A stretch of 64,000 bases of DNA from Alphaproteobacteria bacterium (lineage in GTDB: Bacteria > Pseudomonadota > Alphaproteobacteria > RF32 > CAG-239): the NCBI GenBank assembly GCA_017621635.1, contig JAGASU010000107.1:239-64238 (forward strand), read 5' to 3'. Of this stretch, positions 3,159-52,137 are shown piece after piece. The position numbers and the translations under genes are program-made. The notes below the pieces were generated by a model. It saw nothing but the letters and a program-made list of their open reading frames with translations, searched no databases and was not told where the DNA came from. How positions within the stretch are numbered: position 1 is the stretch's first letter; each line of letters opens with the position of its first letter.

Positions 3159-3822
3159 CTTCTTAACCTTTCTTTACTTTAAAGTAGGCAAAGTAAAACC
3201 CTATATAAGAAGTTGAATTCATCTTACTGCTTGCGCGTATGTGGGATTTACCGTCGACCATACAAAAAATAGAACTAAAAATTTTTCAGATTTTTTCGAA
3301 AAAATTACATTACATAAGATTTTTTTTATTCGTTATGATAAATTAAACATTGTCATACGCACAAACCACCCCGATAAAAGGGCAGGCAGACCACAGGCGT
3401 AGGGCGTTTTCTTTTTAAACCATTCTCACTAACTCTGCCATAATTCACTCACCTATGTTGTTTCCTCATAGGTGTAGAACAGGTGTTTTTTTGGGGGGCT
3501 TTGAGAAAAATGTGATTTTAACGATTTTTTTCGTTTAATTTGCTACTCGGTTTGTTTCCCCCCTCTCGTCACTCGCGCATAAAGCTGTTCGTCGGGGGAT
3601 GGGGAATTGGTAGAGGGGGAGCCTATTTAGTAGTCTTCTCGACGTAATCCCTATTGCATTGCCATAAGGCAAATATGAATTGACTTTTAATCAATTTTTT
3701 TATATAAATTTTGCATAGTTTAGGTGTGATACAAACTGTGTTACTTTAGGTTCGTAATCTTGATTTTAGAAAAATAAAATATATTAAAATCAATATAATG
3801 ACAGAAAAGTGGATGGGAACCA

Positions 3823-46978: not shown

Positions 46979-47076
46979 AAAACAGCTTCTCCCTAAAATT
47001 TAAACTGGACATACAAAAAAAACTGCTTTATTTTAGGCAGGTTAAAAAGTTTAATTTAATTTTTTGGGAAGAAAAA

Positions 47077-49701
47077 ATGACTAGTGTTAATCAAATAAGA
47101 AAAACTTTCTTAAATTATTTTGAGAAGAACGGGCATAAGATTGTGCCGGCGTCTTCTCTTGTGCCGGATAACGACCCTACCCTGATGTTTACCAATTCGG
47201 GCATGGTGCAATTTAAAAACATTTTAGCAGGAAACGAAACCAGAGATTATACACGAGCCGCAACTTCCCAAAAAAGCGTTCGAGCCGGCGGCAAGCATAA
47301 TGACCTTGACAGTGTGGGCTATGATGTGCGCCACCATACGTTTTTTGAAATGCTCGGCAACTTTTCTTTTGGCGATTATTTTAAAGAAGAAGCGATTTAT
47401 TATGCTTGGGAACTGTTAACCAAAGAATTTATGATTCCGAAGGAGAAGTTGGCGGTTACGATTTATCATACCGATGATGAAGCTTATAACATTTGGAAAA
47501 AAGTTTCAGGGCTTTCTGATGAACGGATTATCAGAATTGCTACCAAAGACAACTTTTGGCAGATGGGTGATACGGGACCTTGCGGCCCTTGCTCGGAAAT
47601 CTTTTATGATCACGGACCGGAAGTCTGGGGCGGTCTGCCGGGGACACCGGAAGAAGACGGTGACAGATTTATTGAGATTTGGAATCTGGTATTCGACCAG
47701 TTTGAAGATTTGCCGGACGGTTCGCGCATTAATTTAAAAAAGCCCTCCATTGATACCGGTATGGGGTTGGAGCGAATCGCCGCTATTTTGCAGGGTGTTC
47801 ACTCTAACTTTGATACAGATACGTTTAAACACCTGATTGAGGCGATTGCCAACATTGCCAACACGAATCCGAAAGGCGAGTTGCAGGCTTCGCATAACGT
47901 CATTGCCGACCACTTGCGGGCTATGAGCTTTTTGATTGCCGACGGTGTGTTGCCTTCTAACGAAGGACGCGGCTATGTGTTGCGTCGCATTATGCGCAGA
48001 GCCATGCGCCACGCTTACCTCTTGGGGGTTAAAGAGCCGATGATGTATAAGCTTTTGCCAACGTTGCAAAAAGAAATGGGTGAGGCTTATCCGGAGCTTT
48101 ATCGTTTTGAAAAACTGATAACAGAAACCATTAAGGCTGAAGAAACAAGGTTTGGCAGAACACTTGACAAAGGTATGCGCTTGCTTGATGAAGAAACCGC
48201 TCATTTGAACAAAGGCGATACACTTAACGGTGAAACAGCATTTAAGCTTTATGACACCTACGGTTTCCCGCTTGATTTGACACAAGACGCGCTCAAGAAC
48301 AAAGGAATCGAGGTTGATGTCAACGGGTTTGATGCGGCTATGGCCAAGCAAAAAGAAGAAGCGCGCAAAAACTGGGCAGGGTCAGGCGATGCCGGAACGG
48401 AAAAGATTTGGTTTGAAGTTAAGGAAAATATCGGCGGCACGGAATTTTTGGGCTATACGACCACCAAGAGCGACGGCATTATCAAGACTTTAGTTCAAGA
48501 CAACAAGATTGTTGACAATGTTAAAAGCGGCGAATTTTATCTGGTTGCCAACCAGACGCCGTTTTACGGAGAATGCGGCGGCCAAGTCGGCGATATCGGC
48601 GTTATCTCGGGCAAAGGCTTTAAGGCGGAAGTTTATGACACCAAACGCAAGCTTGATACCGTATTCGTGCATTGTTGCCGAATGATTGAAGGCGAAGTTA
48701 AAGTTGAAGACTTTGCCAACTTTGAAGTTAACATTGAGAATCGCAAACGCATTTGCGCAAACCACTCGGTAACACACTTGGCGCATAAGGCATTAAGGAC
48801 AATTTTAGGCGACCATGTTATGCAAAAAGGCTCTATGGTTGCGGCAGACAGAATGCGTTTTGATATTTCGCACCCAAAGCAAATCAGCGCTGAAGAATTG
48901 AAACAAGCTGAGGATATGGTTAACGAGGCTATTCGCAAGAACTATACTGTCAACACGGTTTTGATGAACCAAGATGAAGCGGTTAAGACAGGGGCGATGG
49001 CGTTGTTTGGTGAAAAATACGGCGAAGAAGTGCGCGTGGTTACAATGGAAAAAGACGGCGAAGTTTATTCGCGCGAGCTATGCGGCGGAACGCACGTTTG
49101 CAGTACCGGTGAAATCGGCTACTTTAACATCATTGGAGAATCGGCTGTTTCGGCAGGTGTGCGCCGTATTGAGTGCGTGACGGGCAAAGGGGCGGAAGAA
49201 TATGTGGACGATGTTGAATGCAAGTTACACTCTGCCTGCAATATCTTAAAAACCAATGTCAATGACTTAGAAGCACGCATTAACAATTTGCTTATCGAAA
49301 GAAAGAAAATGGAAGCGGAAATCTTTAATTTGAAGAAATCCCTTGCCGGCGGCGGGGCTTCTAAAAATACCGAGGCGGAAGTTGTCAACGGCGTGAAATT
49401 TATCGGCAAAGTCATTCCTGATGTTCACCCCAAAGAGCTTAAAGCTTTTATCGACGAGATGAGCCAAAATATCGGCTCGGGCGTTATGGTTTTGGCAACA
49501 GATAAAGACGGTAAAGCCTCGATTGTGGTTGGCGTAACCAAGGACTTGGTCGGCAAATATTCCGCGGTTGAGTTGGTGCGTATTGCCTCAAGAGCTGTCG
49601 GCGGACAAGGCGGCGGCGGAAGACCTGATATGGCGCAAGCCGGCGGTCCGAACGCTGATAAGCTTGAATATGCGTTTGAAGAAGTTAAAAAAGCGATGTA
49701 A
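47077..49701 (+). CDS. alaS: Alanine--tRNA ligase
   Basis: [20 protein letters not shown].., [28 protein letters not shown], and editing-domain HxxxH/CGGTH. Confidence 0.96.
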
Positions 49702-49702
49702 C

Positions 49703-49733
49703 AGAAAAGCTCTCCTTTGAGGAGAGCTTTTTT
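49703..49733. terminator. Bidirectional intrinsic terminator between alaS and the lipoprotein gene
   Basis: AAGCTCTCC-TTTGA-GGAGAGCTT flanked by A- and T-runs. Confidence 0.8.
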
Positions 49734-49745
49734 AATATGATTTCT

Positions 49746-50345
49746 TTATTTTATACCGGTCACCGCGTGCGCTAAACCGACTTCCGAATTTGCTTTATTG
49801 ATAATGCTAATTAAACTTTTTTCATCTTTCTTGCTTAAAGAAACCAGAGCTTTAATATATTCGCCTTCTTTTCCGATACTTGCTTCATTTTTCAGAGCTT
49901 GAAAATTAAATAAACAGAAGCGGCGTGTTTGTGCGTCTTGCAGCCGGCTGTACCGCCCGTAATAACCATATGAGGGGGTTAAATTAGGTGCTGCGCCTTC
50001 CATTTCTATATAAACACCGTTGCGATTATATTGCCACATTCCGCCACTGGCTACATCCGTCAACCAACTCGGCCAAAATGTTAAATTTAATACAGCAGCC
50101 CCGCTTAACTGTGAGCGAAGCATAGTATTTTGATCAGCATATCCTCTTTTTTTAGCATTAATGACTACCGTGGCCGAGTTTCTGTCAACCGGAAAAATAC
50201 ATGGCGTCGTGCAAGCTTTCATCCCGTTTATATAAATTTCAACTCCCGGCACATTTGATGAAAACTGAATATCCTGACTGGAACCGTTTACCAATGTTCC
50301 GCACGAAGCCAATAACGGTATTAATAATAAAGCTGATAATTTCAT
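49746..50345 (-). CDS. Lipoprotein with PEGA-like N-terminal domain
   Basis: Lipobox LLASC, and GVEIYINGMKACTTPCIFPV resembling a PEGA domain. Confidence 0.65.
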   Translation of the reverse strand: MKLSALLLIPLLASCGTLVNGSSQDIQFSSNVPGVEIYINGMKACTTPCIFPVDRNSATVVINAKKRGYADQNTMLRSQLSGAAVLNLTFWPSWLTDVASGGMWQYNRNGVYIEMEGAAPNLTPSYGYYGRYSRLQDAQTRRFCLFNFQALKNEASIGKEGEYIKALVSLSKKDEKSLISIINKANSEVGLAHAVTGIK

Positions 50346-50374
50346 TTAGTCACATCCTTTATTTATGTTCAAAC

Positions 50375-50576
50375 AAAAAACCCGCTTAAAAATTAAGGCG
50401 GGCGGATGCTGGAAAACCATAGTACAAGATTATGGCTCGGCTTATTTGGATAAAACCTTATTTGCCGACATCCGCCCATCACAAGCTAAGATATCGGCAC
50501 AAATTTTCAGTCGAGTGCTTACGACTTCTTGTACTTAAGGGTTTCCAGGCCCTAGGTCTTGTTTTTTGCAAGACTT
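50375..50576 (-). ncRNA. Structured RNA element, copy 1 (about 200 nt; unknown family; possible cis-regulatory leader of 49746..50345)
   Basis: Promoter-like TTGCTT, 16 nt spacer, TAATCT (50583-50610). Also a 5' A-loop hairpin, a closing helix, internal hairpins, a pseudoknot/antiterminator helix and the intrinsic terminator CCCGC(C)TTAA-TTT-TTAAGCGGG+U6. See findings. Ends are approximate. Confidence 0.6.
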
Positions 50577-50582
50577 GTCTTA

Positions 50583-50610
50583 AGATTAGCATATAAAAAA
50601 AAATAAGCAA
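50583..50610 (-). promoter_or_regulatory. Promoter-like signal for RNA copy 1
   Basis: On the minus strand: TTGCTT, 16 nt spacer, TAATCT. The -35 also forms part of an AU-rich hairpin followed by U9, so its role is ambiguous. Confidence 0.35.
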
Positions 50611-50659
50611 GTCTTTTTAGTTGCTTATTTTATTTAAACTTAAATTTAATTGAATAAAT

Positions 50660-50866
50660 AAAAAACCCGCGCAATAAGTCAGGCGGGTGGACGCTGGAAA
50701 ACCATAAGTACAAGAAAAATGGCCCGACCTTTCAGGTATGACCTATCGGCCGACATCCACCCCTTATGAGTTAAGACATCGGCACTGTTTTTAAAGTCGC
50801 GTGCATACGACTCTTGTACTTTTAAGGGCTTCCAGACCCCAGATATCGTTTTTTTCGATATCCGAG
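50660..50866 (-). ncRNA. Structured RNA element, copy 2 (about 205 nt, paralog of copy 1)
   Basis: Same architecture as copy 1, with compensatory changes. Terminator is CCCGC..GCGGG+U6 at 50660-50687. Ends are approximate. Confidence 0.6.
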
Positions 50867-50870
50867 ATAT

Positions 50871-50899
50871 GTTTTAGTTTGTTATTATGTATTTGGCAA
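50871..50899 (-). promoter_or_regulatory. Promoter-like signal for RNA copy 2
   Basis: On the minus strand: TTGCCA, 17 nt spacer, TAAAAC, ending about 7 nt before the 5' hairpin. Confidence 0.4.
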
Positions 50900-50943
50900 G
50901 TTTTTTATTAAGAAATCTCCCACTTATGCGGGAGATTTCTTTT

Positions 50944-52137
50944 TTAACCGAGTTTCGGTGTTTTTTTATGCGGCTCCAGAGTTTTAATTTCTATATTATG
51001 CGTTGAGGGATTATAGGTTAATCCGAGCGCTCCTCGACGCAACATCTCCGCAAAACGGCCGAATATTTCATAACGCCAGCCTTCCATAATTTTGCTTTTG
51101 GCTTTCGGACTTTTGACGTATTCGCGCAATTTTTTTTCGGTTGTTATCAAATGAGGTACAACACCATGTTCGTTGCTCTTTATTTTTAAGAGCAACTTTA
51201 ATATTTCATAGAGCGATTGCTGGGTCGGTGATAATGTTACCTCTTTTTCGCGGTCTGTTTTGCTTAAGTTCTTGTCAAAATCGCTTTCATTTAAGTTCGA
51301 TAAAATTTCCACCATTTCTTTGGCCAAAACGCTTTTAGCTATATCCGAACGCATACCGCGCACACGTTTTATTTCTTCCATATCTTTTGGAAACGCCGCA
51401 GCAATATTTATCAGCATTTCGTCCTTTATAATATTTTGGCGTGTGGTATTTTGTTTTACCGCGCGTTTTTCACGCCAACAGGCCAGTGCTTTGAGAGCAT
51501 TTAAGAAAGCGTGCGAATGACCATTATGACGAATTCTTTGCCATGCATTTTCGGGGCAGACCTGATAATGAGCCACATCTGTCAAATCAACCATTTCCTC
51601 GGCAATCCAGTTTTCTCTTTTATGTTCTTTGAGATAGTCTGCTATTTTGGCATAACAGGTTAATAAATGAGTCACGTCGCCTAAAGCATATTGCATTTGT
51701 TCTTCTGTTAACGGACGAAGCTGCCAATTTGTCAAACGGCAGGTTTTATCAAGTTCTACTTCGCAACAGGCTTTGACAAGATTTTCATAGCTGACATTTT
51801 CCCCTAAACCGCAAGCTTCGGCGGCTATTTGCGTATCAAACACGGAAACGGGAACCGAGCCTGACAGATTATAAAGAATTTCCAAATCCTGCCGGCCGGA
51901 ATGAAATATTTTTAAGATATTTTCATTCTGCAAAACAGCAAAAAAAGGACTTAAATCCAGATCTTCAGCCAACGGGTCAATTAAAAACGCCCCTTTTTGA
52001 CAGGCAACCTGAATTAAACAGGGAATAGGATAATAAGTTTTTTCACGAATAAACTCACTATCTATGGCGATATGGGTTTGCGTTTGCAATATTTCACAAA
52101 CACTTTTAAGCTCTTTAGTGGTATCTATTAAATTCAT
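50944..52137 (-). CDS. rnd: Ribonuclease D (DEDDy 3'-5' exonuclease + HRDC)
   Basis: IAIDSEF, FHSGRQDLE and YALGDVTHL motifs, 397 aa. Confidence 0.88.
   Translation of the reverse strand: MNLIDTTKELKSVCEILQTQTHIAIDSEFIREKTYYPIPCLIQVACQKGAFLIDPLAEDLDLSPFFAVLQNENILKIFHSGRQDLEILYNLSGSVPVSVFDTQIAAEACGLGENVSYENLVKACCEVELDKTCRLTNWQLRPLTEEQMQYALGDVTHLLTCYAKIADYLKEHKRENWIAEEMVDLTDVAHYQVCPENAWQRIRHNGHSHAFLNALKALACWREKRAVKQNTTRQNIIKDEMLINIAAAFPKDMEEIKRVRGMRSDIAKSVLAKEMVEILSNLNESDFDKNLSKTDREKEVTLSPTQQSLYEILKLLLKIKSNEHGVVPHLITTEKKLREYVKSPKAKSKIMEGWRYEIFGRFAEMLRRGALGLTYNPSTHNIEIKTLEPHKKTPKLG

Follow-up and report, generated by a model that had tools for sequence, protein, structure and literature searches.

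Tandem RNA elements upstream of a lipoprotein gene belong to a family of structured leaders that resembles phage C4 and sRNA-Xcc1 antisense RNAs

The 64,000-nucleotide stretch of alphaproteobacterial DNA analyzed here (the window) carries two similar elements arranged head to tail upstream of a gene for a PEGA-domain lipoprotein. An earlier note, made from the sequence alone, described them as structured RNAs that match no known family and that might form a riboswitch-like leader. This raises the question of what kind of RNA the elements are, and how they relate to the gene that follows.

Two structured RNAs on the minus strand

Both elements fold as the earlier note had described, and the helices named there all lie on the minus strand (Table 1). 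Copy 1, proximal to the gene, and copy 2, distal to it, have 82% mean column identity in the alignment and share a 25-nt core with two occurrences in the window, where 0.00 would be expected. The nhmmer family profile scores copy 1 at 121.6 bits and copy 2 at 82.1 bits, which places copy 2 among the most divergent members. Minimum free energy (MFE) folds in the minus sense have z-scores of −4.85 (copy 1) and −5.7 (copy 2); as the plus-sense fold is about equal to these (z = −4.6), folding energy backs the structure but not the strand. The earlier strand call agrees with the predicted promoter, the terminator, the G-U pairs, and the downstream open reading frame (ORF), all of which point to the minus strand. 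A plus-sense hairpin at 50912-50945 lies immediately past the rnd stop codon. No tmRNA was detected in the window by ARAGORN.

In copy 1, the P4 3′ arm (50463-50477) contains the 5′ strand of helix 5, so that GGGCGGAUG has two alternative partners, the P4 5′ arm or 50400-50408. Copy 2 has a promoter-like site and a terminator of its own and no ORF after it, and is thus an orphan copy; this makes a cooperative tandem switch unlikely. The head-to-tail arrangement recurs in just one other genome (L003/L041) among 128 loci and is incidental.

Table 1. Features of the two elements and of the gene downstream (window coordinates)
Feature	Position	Strand	Basis
Copy 1 (proximal) leader RNA, predicted start to terminator U-tract	50375..50577	-	Sequence, MFE fold, nhmmer family profile
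Copy 1 candidate promoter: TTGCTT 50605-50610, 16-nt spacer with T9 run, TAATCT 50583-50588	50583..50610	-	Read from sequence, predicted
Copy 1 P0 5′ hairpin GUCUUG/CAAGAC, A-rich loop	50556..50574	-	Sequence, MFE fold
Copy 1 AGGG and P1 5′ strand (CCUGGAAACC); putative a1-like mask of junction/anti-SD strand	50540..50553	-	Covarying P1 pairs
Copy 1 P1 helix	50540-50548 with 50409-50418	-	Sequence
Copy 1 P2 helix	50528-50534 with 50422-50428	-	Sequence
Copy 1 P2 5′ strand GUACAAG (b1-like)	50528..50534	-	Cognate versus non-cognate duplex energy
Copy 1 P3 hairpin AGUCG...CGACU	50509..50526	-	Covariation
Copy 1 P4 hairpin; 5′ arm UGCCGAUAUC (50490-50499), 3′ arm 50463-50477	50463..50499	-	Upper stem covaries
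Copy 1 helix-5 5′ strand GGGCGGAUG, internal SD mimic	50469..50477	-	Covariation, Xcc1/C4 model alignments
Copy 1 A-rich internal loops AAAUAA/AAAUAA around small P5 hairpin	50442..50462	-	Family conservation
Copy 1 P5	GG 50456-50457 : CC 50448-50449	-	Sequence
Copy 1 GCCGAGCCA, unpaired in fold A	50433..50441	-	x-y pair and hairpin 2 covariation
Copy 1 P2 3′ strand CUUGUAC; in fold B, hairpin 2 loop (b′-like)	50422..50428	-	Sequence comparison
Copy 1 P1 3′ strand GGUUUUCCAG; in fold B, junction strand (a′-like)	50409..50418	-	Covariation
Copy 1 CAUCCGCCC: anti-SD, helix-5 3′ strand, and (GCCC) start of terminator 5′ arm	50400..50408	-	Sequence, covariation
Copy 1 intrinsic terminator CCCGC(C)...GCGGG + U6	50375..50403	-	Sequence, MFE fold, family stem covariation
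Shine-Dalgarno GGAUG (50353-50357) and ATG of lipoprotein gene (50343-50345)	50343..50357	-	Sequence
PEGA-domain lipoprotein gene, 199 aa, lipobox LLASC, presumed regulated	49746..50345	-	Pfam PEGA, 21.4 bits
Copy 2 (distal) RNA, plan as copy 1	50660..50868	-	Sequence, alignment, MFE fold
Copy 2 helix 5 GGGUGGAUG/CGUCCACCC	50754-50762/50685-50693	-	Sequence
Copy 2 terminator	50660-50687	-	Sequence
Copy 2 candidate promoter TTGCCA-N17-TAAAAC	50871..50899	-	Read from sequence and consensus scan, predicted
Copy 2 alternative candidate promoter TTAATA-N16-CATAAT	50884-50911	-	Consensus scan, predicted

A large family of leader RNAs in gut Alphaproteobacteria

The tandem elements genuinely belong to a family of structured leader RNAs of ~190 nt that is large and uncatalogued. 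A single pattern scan found the family in at least 119 genomic stretches, and the hosts among the matches listed are essentially all metagenome-assembled genomes of gut and rumen Alphaproteobacteria, with up to five or more copies per genome. The nhmmer profile retrieved 132 homologues from ~1 Mb of fetched loci. Most members were gathered with a fixed DNA pattern, so that the invariance of the conserved blocks is partly due to ascertainment; ten loci reached through the protein and not through the pattern have identical conserved blocks. Literature searches on the motif in gut Alphaproteobacteria returned no description of it.

Each copy follows a common plan of promoter-like site, 5′ hairpin, multi-helix core, and intrinsic terminator. 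Promoter-like signals upstream of P0 are enriched across the family (best score of 8.55, versus 7.17 in control regions). Of 115 promoter regions, 25 contain a homopolymer run of at least 8 nt; this is no clear enrichment, and phase variation through homopolymers was rejected on this count.

A Shine-Dalgarno sequence (SD), which in this family is GGAUG, and an ORF on the same strand lie 40 to 75 nt (typically ~50 nt) downstream in 119 of 131 copies. These ORFs encode PEGA lipoproteins, outer membrane protein barrels, autotransporters, pilins, LOS-type glycosyltransferases, and methylases, and most of the regulated units are single short genes. Among 112 downstream ORFs, Pfam retrieved PEGA (18), OMP_b-brl (9), Autotransporter (6), and Opacity (5), together with GT2/GT8/GT29, APH, pilins, EcoRI methylase, and HTH. 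The lipoprotein of the window has 91 homologues; the RNA is present at 10 of 12 loci of its orthologues whatever the flanking genes, and the orthologues that lack it have AAGGAC-type SDs instead. The connection to the downstream gene that had been suspected at this one locus thus holds family-wide. Neighboring genes are housekeeping genes (alaS, rnd, and aspS). Orphan copies with no ORF are copy 2 of the window and the distal copy in L003, and one locus (L080) has two copies on opposite strands, ~2.4 kb apart.

Two mutually exclusive folds backed by covariation

Fold A comprises P1 to P5 and the terminator. On 84 sequences, 95% of its cells are paired, and 174 cells carry double changes, compared with 51 ± 13 in shuffled alignments and no more than 38 in slid controls, which bears out the covarying helices of the earlier note. 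P1 pairs vary between CG (52 sequences), AU (28), and GC (2) at columns 52/263 and between CG (10) and UA (17) at columns 50/265, and its GGG:UCC segment is paired in 83 of 84 sequences. P2 has no conserved sequence, and its cognate strands form duplexes of −12.7 kcal/mol versus −4.3 kcal/mol for non-cognate strands. P3 is 98% paired, with double changes in four of its five pairs. The upper stem of P4 covaries (columns 140/175, GC56 and AU11; columns 146/174, UA36 and CG31), as does the terminator stem across the family (columns 275/296, GC42, AU21, and GU18). In the alignment, P0 keeps its potential to form a hairpin with no conservation of sequence, and the A-rich block AAUAAGG...AAAUAA is conserved. 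The terminator is followed by a conserved UUUGAAC, for which a consistent pairing partner was sought and none was found.

Fold B is a three-way junction closed by helix 5 and is what RNAalifold gives for the isolated 3′ domain. By folding energy, this domain on its own takes up helix 5 in 106 of 121 cases, whereas intact leaders favor fold A by 19.4 ± 5 kcal/mol. Across the family, helix 5 is 94% paired, and each of the seven substitutions in its core of 6 bp is matched by a compensating one, as in the compensatory change reported between the two copies. The x-y pair of fold B is GC in 107 sequences, AU in 17, and AC in 1, and hairpin 2 is 100% paired, with 14 GC-to-AU changes. In copy 1, GCCGAGCCA supplies GCCGA for pairing with UCGGC in hairpin 1 and GAGCCA for pairing with UGGUUU in hairpin 2. 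As the earlier note had pointed out, helix 5 overlaps the 5′ arm of the terminator; the two share GCCC.

Relation to sRNA-Xcc1

At Rfam gathering thresholds, the whole window yields two tRNAs and nothing else, and to this extent the statement that the elements match no known family stands. Below these thresholds it does not: every member tested matches sRNA-Xcc1 at 26 to 35 bits, and one matches C4 at 25 bits. sRNA-Xcc1 (Rfam RF02221) is an 88-nt sRNA borne by integrons, transposons, or plasmids in Xanthomonas and other bacteria. In E-value mode, the window copies score 35.0 and 25.6 bits and do not reach the threshold of 53; eight other members, one from each of eight loci, score 25.7 to 35.4 bits, and the extra copy in L080 also matches the model. 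All 10 copies tested align over the full length of the model (positions 1-87) in the register of helix 5, which is the outer helix in the Xcc1 and C4 model alignments. Bona fide Xcc1 members score 68.8 and 69.7 bits.

Both RNAs have a three-way junction with a 9-bp outer helix, hairpin 1, hairpin 2, and a junction strand. In hairpin 1 of each, internal loops AAUA.../...AAUAA flank a small inner hairpin. They also share the GCCGN...NCGGU form of hairpin 2, the junction UUUxGAxC, and a position upstream of a same-strand ORF, which for Xcc1 is symE (bioRxiv 10.1101/2025.06.18.660453). The bona fide plasmid copy that scores 69.7 bits has the topology of the leaders: complements of its junction strand and of its hairpin 2 loop are found both upstream and at the SD of the ORF that follows. 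In contrast to Xcc1, the leaders carry an additional 5′ domain of ~110 nt (P0, long P1 and P2, P3, and the P4 5′ arm), helix 5 lying ~110 nt downstream of the predicted promoter. Their intrinsic terminator is a separate element that overlaps the outer helix. Their one downstream site is a2-like and lies at the SD, with no b2-like site, and they are chromosomal, with up to five or more copies per genome, in gut Alphaproteobacteria, before genes for surface proteins.

Relation to phage C4 and IsrK

The C4 antisense RNA model (RF01695) gives a best score of 25.1 bits, for one member (L027), which does not reach the cutoff of 45, and it has no match to the window copies at an E value of ≤10. In the reciprocal direction, a covariance model of the 3′ domain (R1) searched against positions 47000-50000 of phage P1 returns 5.7 bits (E = 1.2), which is not significant and does not establish homology with C4, at a location that falls exactly on c4 (48341-48421). 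The isrK model gives only 13 to 17 bits.

The layout of fold B mirrors the annotated a1-b1-c4-a2-b2 region of P1, except for b2. In phage P1, a promoter is followed by upstream complements, a three-way-junction RNA, a downstream complement at the ribosome binding site (RBS), and the gene, and the nested order of a1, b1, b′ (hairpin 2 loop), and a′ (junction strand) corresponds to P1 5′, P2 5′, P2 3′, and P1 3′ of the leader. The upstream complements (P1 and P2) are present and extended, and the junction strand together with CAUCC has a complement over the SD. Specificity classes that covary among mask, junction strand, and RBS recall P1/P7 heteroimmunity (PMC5320573), and a predicted short terminated RNA with a putative read-through mRNA would recall IsrK (PMC4825925). 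The gene order of an IsrK-type dual sRNA/mRNA and the complementarity to the SD are both in place. Relatives of C4 include P4 CI (seqA/B/C), Salmonella IsrK, and the Group 1 C4-like sRNAs of Acinetobacter baumannii (PMC4825925, PMC5320573).

The leaders differ from C4 in that their masks are long, stable helices of 9 to 14 bp rather than sites of 6 to 8 nt, and in that the RBS is the complement of the junction strand and CAUCC and not of a hairpin loop. No downstream b2-like complement of the hairpin 2 loop was found, cognate and non-cognate duplex energies being equal. No phage or prophage context was found; the family pattern gives 0 matches in IMG/VR. Judged from sequence and predicted structure, the family looks like an elaborated relative of the phage C4/sRNA-Xcc1 antisense RNAs and not like a proven riboswitch.

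The leader and the Shine-Dalgarno sequence

The GGAUG[U/C] of the SD covaries with the [A/G]CAUCC of the leader (Fisher p = 1.2e-4), and GGAUGC is found solely alongside GCAUCC. UUAGAA is enriched with UCUAAC (5/13 versus 2/63; p = 1.2e-3). The spacer between SD and AUG tracks the P1 3′ strand in other family members but not in copy 1, where complementarity ends at GGAUGU/GCAUCC. The ~17 kb directly downstream of the 132 leaders (132 × 130 nt) contain 47 SDs of the AGGAUGUU type; a search for trans targets found 26 of them away from leaders in 1 Mb, which is about chance. The SD pairs with CAUCC in just 32 of 101 MFE folds of fold A read-through transcripts, so that an effect on translation may be weak.

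Proposed mechanism

Building on the family, its two folds, the terminator overlap, and the SD/anti-SD covariation, we infer a mechanism by analogy with P1 c4, P4 CI, IsrK, and the processed Acinetobacter C4-like sRNAs. On balance, the element is probably a cis-regulatory, self-masked, C4-like leader of the gene immediately downstream. Each element would be an independently transcribed 5′ leader of ~190 nt, copy 1 controlling the PEGA lipoprotein. Its 3′ half would be a junction of the C4/sRNA-Xcc1 type, built from helix 5 as the outer helix, hairpin 1 with A-rich loops inside it, hairpin 2, and a junction strand left single-stranded. The 5′ half would carry the masks: the P1 5′ strand on the junction strand, the P2 5′ strand on the hairpin 2 loop, and the P4 5′ arm on the helix-5 5′ strand.

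As long as the transcript is intact, the masks would win and fold A would form, leaving CCCGCC free for the terminator and giving mostly the short RNA. Read-through transcripts in fold A would be translatable. The strand UUUUCNNNCAUCCRCCC would act as a hub, with the 5′ mask, the internal SD mimic GGRYGGAUG, the terminator 3′ arm, and the downstream SD region GGAUGNNNGAAAA as possible partners, and its pairing with GGRYGGAUG in helix 5 would destroy the terminator. Were the 5′ half processed or removed, the unmasked 3′ domain would refold into the C4-like form, and the junction/anti-SD strand could pair with the SD-AUG region and repress translation. The direction of regulation, its trigger, and any action in trans are presumptive, and the start site, processing, and terminator efficiency are predictions from sequence.

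Alternative explanations

The riboswitch suggested by the earlier note would have fold A as an aptamer that binds a small molecule such as the second messenger c-di-GMP. The ligand would favor a pseudoknot in which the apical part of P4 (GGRYGGAUG) pairs with the 3′ tail (CAUCCRCCC), opening both terminator and SD as an ON switch. The family does combine a conserved multi-helix domain with a terminator and an antiterminator-like helix that are mutually exclusive, as is generic for riboswitches, and terminating riboswitches and leaders with SD control likewise have a multi-helix domain, a terminator 5′ arm that pairs upstream, and an SD sequestered by the same strand. To this can be added a junction of five helices whose unpaired nucleotides are highly conserved, the several copies per genome before different genes, the placing of terminator, antiterminator-like helix, and SD sequestration on one hub strand, and a downstream set of pilins, adhesin-like autotransporters, surface proteins, and glycosyltransferases, which resembles c-di-GMP riboswitch regulons. 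The 112 downstream ORFs, however, have no coherent metabolic or transport theme by Pfam and no coherent function, and Rfam matches no known riboswitch class even at an E value of ≤10. Moreover, most of the conserved "junction" nucleotides (GCCGAGCC, UCGGY, and the A-rich loops) are explained by fold B, itself conserved and C4-like, and recur in the non-riboswitch Xcc1/C4 RNAs; the x-y covariation needs open P1 and P2, which a simple pseudoknot model does not. We consider a true riboswitch unlikely. It is somewhat more doubtful that the leader is bound by a protein, either a specialized antiterminator of the NusG/RfaH/LoaP type or another kind or a CsrA-like regulator on the two GGAUGU motifs, which would coordinate surface genes. 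A conserved leader and terminator before surface, LOS, and pilus genes would suit such a protein, the two motifs resemble the CsrA SELEX consensus RUACARGGAUGU, and GGCGGAUG is loosely like the ops element GGCGGTAG. Yet the two GGAUG motifs are alike of necessity, since each pairs with the same CAUCC, and the internal one lies in a stem of fold A and not in a loop. Mostly single short genes are controlled, as opposed to the long operons typical of processive antitermination, and no candidate protein was identified. The CsrA site, the ops-like motif, and a P3/P4 strand swap (AGUCG with the CGACU of P4) were each rejected, the motifs being either explained by CAUCC pairing or not conserved in the GUUGGCAUUC subfamily.

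Two further readings set the downstream gene or the RNA itself aside. Every copy comes with a promoter-like site and a strong terminator of its own, and two orphan copies (copy 2 of the window and the distal copy in L003) lack an ORF, as would be expected of stand-alone genes for trans-acting sRNAs of ~190 nt that act on unlinked mRNAs and lie next to an ORF incidentally; A-rich motifs and a U-tail are typical of Hfq-dependent sRNAs. That reading is quite improbable given the fixed orientation and distance of the ORF in 119 of 131 copies, the way in which the RNA follows the lipoprotein gene into differing genomic contexts, the covariation of the SD with its own leader, and the chance-level frequency of AGGAUGUU-type SDs away from leaders, and the antisense strand is masked by ~19 kcal/mol in the intact RNA. 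Multiple dispersed copies upstream of contingency-type surface genes, and the T9 run in the copy 1 promoter spacer, could also suggest a DNA repeat (for example a MITE, a cassette for recombination or phase variation, or a tract of gene conversion) in place of a functional RNA. This is very improbable: copies within a genome are just ~70 to 80% identical, compensatory changes keep the RNA helices, the element is strictly strand specific relative to the ORF, homopolymers lack clear enrichment, and a reading of the sequence by eye showed neither terminal inverted repeats nor target duplications.

Implications

The RNA family is large, well supported, and absent from Rfam 15 at curated thresholds, and its hosts form an uncultured yet widespread clade of Alphaproteobacteria from the gut of humans, mice, and ruminants. 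As far as we found, an antisense domain fully masked by its own 5′ half appears to be undescribed, as does the use of one hub strand by the mask, the terminator, the internal SD mimic, and the real SD. If the self-masked C4-like leader is real, it would link the antisense type of phage C4 and integron Xcc1 to the control of chromosomal genes for lipoproteins, porins, autotransporters, pilins, and LOS glycosyltransferases. Such classes of surface genes are phase variable in other host-adapted bacteria.

More tentatively, and on the whole rather unlikely, the family may form an RNA-only control network for surface-antigen genes, or else fold A may be a new riboswitch class for a host or second-messenger signal. 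In such a network, each locus may make a masked pro-antisense RNA for contingency-type surface-antigen genes, and the unmasked C4-like domains may act in trans on the GGAUGUUYRAAA initiation regions shared by paralogous loci. The specificity classes GAA, UAA, UAG, and CAG may then behave like those of P1/P7 heteroimmunity. A network of this kind would make the expression of lipoproteins, pilins, porins, and LOS-modifying enzymes hierarchical or mutually exclusive.

Tandem RNA elements between rnd and the lipoprotein gene

The interval between rnd and the PEGA-domain lipoprotein gene, in a block flanked by alaS and aspS, holds two elements that align with 82% mean column identity. Minimum free energy (MFE) folds give the same plan for both, with z scores of -4.9 and -5.7, and a 25-nt core common to them occurs twice in the 64 kb against 0.00 expected, which confirms the tandem structured elements described in the earlier note. 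Folding this stretch in the plus sense gives a similar score (z of -4.6), so that folding energy leaves the strand undecided. In each copy, a predicted sigma-70-like promoter site is followed by a 5' hairpin (P0) whose stem sequence is wholly unlike between the copies, a closing helix P1 (CUGGAAACC/GGUUUUCCAG) stacked on P2 (GUACAAG/CUUGUAC), the hairpins P3 (AGUCG/CGACU) and P4 (UGCCGAUAUC/GGAUGUCGGCA), a small hairpin P5, and a canonical terminator (CCCGC...GCGGG plus U6). The 9-nt complementarity claimed for copy 1, here called helix 5, is present between GGGCGGAUG (50469-77) and CAUCCGCCC (50400-08), with GGGUGGAUG/CGUCCACCC as its counterpart in copy 2, and it overlaps the terminator as had been proposed.

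Features of the element interval and its neighborhood
Feature	Position	Strand	Context
Copy 1 leader RNA	~50577 to 50375	minus	between rnd and lipoprotein gene
Copy 2 leader RNA	~50868 to 50660	minus	head-to-tail with copy 1
rnd	50944-52137	minus	upstream edge of the interval
PEGA-domain lipoprotein gene, 199 aa	49746-50345	minus	downstream edge of the interval
Hairpin AAAGAAAUCUCCCGC-AUAA-GUGGGAGAUUUCUU	50910-50942	minus sense	directly after the rnd stop at 50944
14-bp hairpin AGAAAAGCUCUCC-UUU-GGAGAGCUUUUUU	49703-49733		between alaS end (49701) and lipoprotein gene end (49746)

The plus-sense terminator-like hairpin that had been called unexplained does exist, but it adjoins the rnd stop and looks like the terminator of rnd itself; because an A-tract and a U-tract flank it, it could act both ways. 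The genes alaS and the lipoprotein gene are convergent, and the 14-bp hairpin between them is probably their shared bidirectional terminator.

Head-to-tail pairs are rare in the family set, being found in only one other genome (fetched loci L003/L041), so that the tandem arrangement is no feature of the family; a further locus, L080, has two copies on opposite strands, ~2.4 kb apart. Because copy 2 carries a separate promoter-like site and terminator and no open reading frame (ORF), a cooperative tandem switch was rejected; the profile score of copy 2 (82 bits) is among the lowest. Both window copies share a rare CUGG/CCAG class of P1, seen otherwise only in the distal copy of L003. The likeliest view of copy 2 is that of an orphan paralogue, which may supply an RNA acting in trans on the locus of copy 1. 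The distal L003 copy (3443-3640, equal to L041 2075-2243) is without the usual terminator; at its end stands a long hairpin of another kind, GCCUUGUCUGCC...GGCAGACAGGC, that has no U-tract.

Family extent and downstream genes

Searching GTDB species-representative genomes with a degenerate DNA pattern derived from the conserved blocks gave at least 119 matching stretches; those listed are essentially all from MAGs of Alphaproteobacteria of the gut or rumen (human, mouse, ruminant, horse, and rabbit). Copies per genome reach at least five in JAZKXP01, at least four in CAVGVF01 and JAFTHM01, and at least three in JAFXFY01 and CAKQUE01. An nhmmer profile search found 132 copies in 1.02 Mb of fetched loci plus the window, which itself holds only two. 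Since most members were gathered with the fixed pattern, it is in part the selection itself that makes GAUGUCGG, GYCGRGCC, and GGUUUUC invariant; the same conserved blocks are present in the 10 loci to which the protein led. The second copy in L080 (3924-4100, minus) was overlooked by the regular expression and scores 95.9 bits with nhmmer and 25.7 bits with the Rfam Xcc1 model; more divergent members therefore exist beyond the pattern. Six contigs with the leader sit in bins named "Eubacteriales," "[Ruminococcus] gnavus," or "Bacteroidaceae" (L011, L026, L040, L042, L062, and L064), most likely through mis-binning.

The window lipoprotein is 100% identical to a protein from an "Alphaproteobacteria bacterium" MAG. 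Among 12 loci, comprising the window and those of 11 distinct orthologues (47 to 62% identity), the RNA lies directly upstream of the lipoprotein gene in 10, and it is kept there despite neighbors other than rnd and alaS (trxB-like, mfd, acyltransferase, and others). The two orthologues without the RNA also have no GGAUG-type Shine-Dalgarno (SD) sequence. Leaderless orthologues (L007 3811-4001 and L133 to L135) have AT-rich upstream regions with AAGGAC-type SDs instead of GGAUGUU, so the special SD travels with the leader.

An SD, usually AAGGAUGUU, and then an ORF on the same strand follow 40 to 75 nt past the conserved core in 119 of 131 copies. A Pfam search of 112 non-identical downstream ORFs retrieved PEGA (18), OMP beta-barrel (9), Autotransporter (6), Opacity (5), OmpA-like (5), Surface_Ag_2 (4), Glycos_transf_2 (GT2; 4), Glyco_transf_8 (GT8; 2), Glyco_transf_29 (GT29; 3), APH-type kinase (4), and EcoRI-type methylase (2) domains, as well as Bundlin/PilS-type pilins, BspA LRR, and HTH proteins. 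This is a cell-surface and host-interaction set, similar to the contingency loci of Neisseria and Haemophilus.

The stretch immediately 5' of P0 is enriched in promoter-like signals (best score of 8.55 versus 7.17 in the control; 29% versus 5% with scores of at least 9.5), and thus each copy looks like its own transcription unit, with predicted promoters, transcript ends, and terminator efficiency. A T9 run (50595-50603) lies inside the 16-nt spacer of the copy 1 promoter-like site, which is a classic position for slipped-strand phase variation. Homopolymers of at least 8 nt occur in 25 of 115 promoter/P0 regions of the family, which is not clearly over the AT-rich background.

Two mutually exclusive folds

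Covariation supports the fold made of P1 to P5 and the terminator (fold A). In an alignment of 84 non-redundant sequences, 95.0% of cells are paired for P1, P3, P4, P5, and the terminator, with double changes at 16 pairs and 174 double-change cells versus 51 ± 13 after shuffling that ignores phylogeny (0/500 as high) and at most 38 in slid controls. One P1 pair is CG in 52 sequences, AU in 28, and GC in 2, and another alternates between CG and UA; the upper stem of P4, which competes with helix 5 for the same GGRYGG, covaries as well (GC56/AU11; UA36/CG31). P2 has no sequence conservation and is not alignable, and its duplex energies were compared instead; these are -12.7 ± 2.5 kcal/mol for cognate strands versus -4.3 ± 2.2 for non-cognate ones, with 96% of cognates beating the 5th percentile of non-cognates.

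Folded alone with RNAalifold, the 3' half forms a three-way junction (fold B) of helix 5 (YGGAUGU/ACAUCCR, plus GG/CC), hairpin 1 (CGGY/RCCG, around A-rich loops and P5), and hairpin 2 (AGCCx/yGGUU). On the same alignment this fold is 95.9% paired, with 85 double-change cells versus 22 ± 6 in shuffles that likewise ignore phylogeny. All seven substitutions in the helix 5 core are compensated (U-A in four, A-U in three, and C-A or G-U in none); half of the family has an A.C mismatch at one position because the base there follows its P4 partner. At the x-y pair of hairpin 2, 107 copies have GC, 17 have AU, and 1 has AC; this pair excludes P2 and inner P1, since the 3' strand of P2 is its loop. 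Folds A and B are thus mutually exclusive, and each is supported by covariation.

In intact leaders, fold A is favored by 19.4 ± 5.0 kcal/mol over any nested fold with helix 5, whereas in the isolated 3' domain helix 5 is in the MFE structure for 106 of 121 sequences, even with the terminator present (its end set at the first UUUU, by which a few sequences whose loops are U-rich are cut short). The whole 3' domain is thus masked by the 5' half, with the junction strand covered by P1 5', the hairpin 2 loop by P2 5', the 5' strand of helix 5 by P4 5', and the UCC of CAUCC by AGGG.

Covariation of the leader with the downstream SD

The leader strand UUUUC-NNN-CAUCC is complementary to the translation initiation region GGAUG-NNN-GAAAA, and the two covary. 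GGAUGC follows 6 of 13 leaders with GCAUCC and 0 of 36 with ACAUCC (Fisher p = 1.2e-4), UUAGAA spacers accompany UCUAAC leaders (p = 1.2e-3), and UUYRAA spacers accompany UCGAAC leaders (p = 0.03); loci fetched later via the protein obey the same rule. Leader and downstream gene are linked in cis. The ~17 kb immediately following leaders contain the motif AGGAUGUU 47 times, and the other ~2 Mb, counting both strands, contain it 26 times, versus ~31 by chance; the special SD therefore belongs to leader-linked genes. The hub strand CAUCCRCCC can pair with the internal SD mimic (helix 5), the 3' arm of the terminator, or the real SD, and MFE folds of full leaders pair the SD with CAUCC in 32 of 101. 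UUUGAAC or UUUAAC recurs 5 to 25 nt after the terminator U-tract, before the SD (UUUGAAC at 50366-50372 in the window); no consistent pairing partner was found for it across the family.

Resemblance to Xcc1 and C4 RNAs

That the elements belong to no known family holds at Rfam gathering thresholds, at which no family matches them, but not in E-value mode, in which sub-threshold matches to sRNA-Xcc1 (RF02221) appear. The window copies align with this model over its full length and in the register of fold B (35.0 and 25.6 bits; threshold of 53), and eight other members and the extra L080 copy score 25.7 to 35.4 bits against the same threshold. One member matches C4 antisense RNA (RF01695) with 25.1 bits (threshold of 45) and isrK with 16.8 bits. 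Common to the leaders and Xcc1/C4 are an outer helix, a hairpin 1 whose loops are AAUA/AAUAA, a hairpin 2 (GCCGN/NCGGU), and a UUUxCxAAC junction.

The annotated order in phage P1 is promoter, a1, b1, c4, a2, b2, and icd, and in the P1 sequence b' is the hairpin 2 loop and a' the junction strand. The nested order a1, b1, b', a' corresponds exactly to P1 5', P2 5', P2 3', and P1 3' of the leaders. A bona fide Xcc1 copy (69.7 bits) on the Nitratidesulfovibrio vulgaris plasmid pDsulf-L2-2 (L132 1080-1320) has UUGAAC and CACAAAG ~85 to 100 nt upstream, and UUGAAC and CACAAAG-GGAGG downstream, complementary to its junction strand and hairpin 2 loop; the second downstream site directly adjoins the SD of the ORF that follows. 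With the same full layout around an ORF as the phage P1 c4 region, Xcc1 appears from its sequence to share the a1-b1/a2-b2 design, of which no statement was found in the literature searched. Another Xcc1 member (68.8 bits) and a weak second copy (33.9 bits) lie 140 nt apart (L131 1185-1270 and 1410-1480) in a Neisseria gonorrhoeae record held in PLSDB as a 2.17-Mb "plasmid," evidently a mislabeled chromosome.

Xcc1 has been reported upstream of symE in integron cassettes (bioRxiv 10.1101/2025.06.18.660453), and Weinberg et al. list a separate "c4-a1b1" motif (PMC2864571). IsrK is a short terminated sRNA that acts on its own read-through mRNA (PMC4825925), P4 CI with seqA/B/C is a related precedent cited in that article, and Acinetobacter C4-like sRNAs are multi-copy and processed (PMC5320573). 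In the reciprocal direction, the 3'-domain model placed itself exactly on P1 c4, though with only 5.7 bits (E = 1.2). Unlike C4, the leaders have no b2-like site and no phage context, the family pattern giving 0 matches in IMG/VR. They are taken to work like the C4/Xcc1 class and are probably distantly related to it; given the sub-threshold scores, the weak reciprocal match, and these two differences, they are not filed as members.

Proposed mechanism

We consider a cis-regulatory, C4-like leader somewhat better than an even bet. The masks would form cotranscriptionally as fold A, followed by the terminator, so that most transcripts would end as an RNA of ~190 nt, and read-through molecules in fold A would be largely translatable. 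Removal or displacement of the 5' half, possibly by endonucleolytic cleavage at the 5' boundary of helix 5 by analogy with C4 and the Acinetobacter RNAs, would let the 3' domain refold into the C4-like junction. Its junction/anti-SD strand could then pair with the SD-AUG region and repress translation, in cis or on paralogous mRNAs of the same class.

The riboswitch raised in the earlier note would be an ON switch, with a ligand stabilizing a pseudoknot in which helix 5 forms while P1 and P2 are intact; the downstream genes are a surface set and no metabolic regulon, and we hold it to be unlikely. A leader bound by a protein seems slightly less probable again. No unlinked targets with AGGAUGUU were seen in the remaining ~2 Mb of both strands, next to the linkage in cis, and a pure trans sRNA is improbable. 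A DNA repeat, set beside the covariation of both folds, is barely credible.

The leaders form a real and sizeable RNA family, outside Rfam at curated thresholds and similar in kind to the C4/Xcc1-type cis-encoded antisense leaders. Their self-masking architecture is unusual, and in a gut clade that is uncultured they show a striking association with genes for surface proteins.
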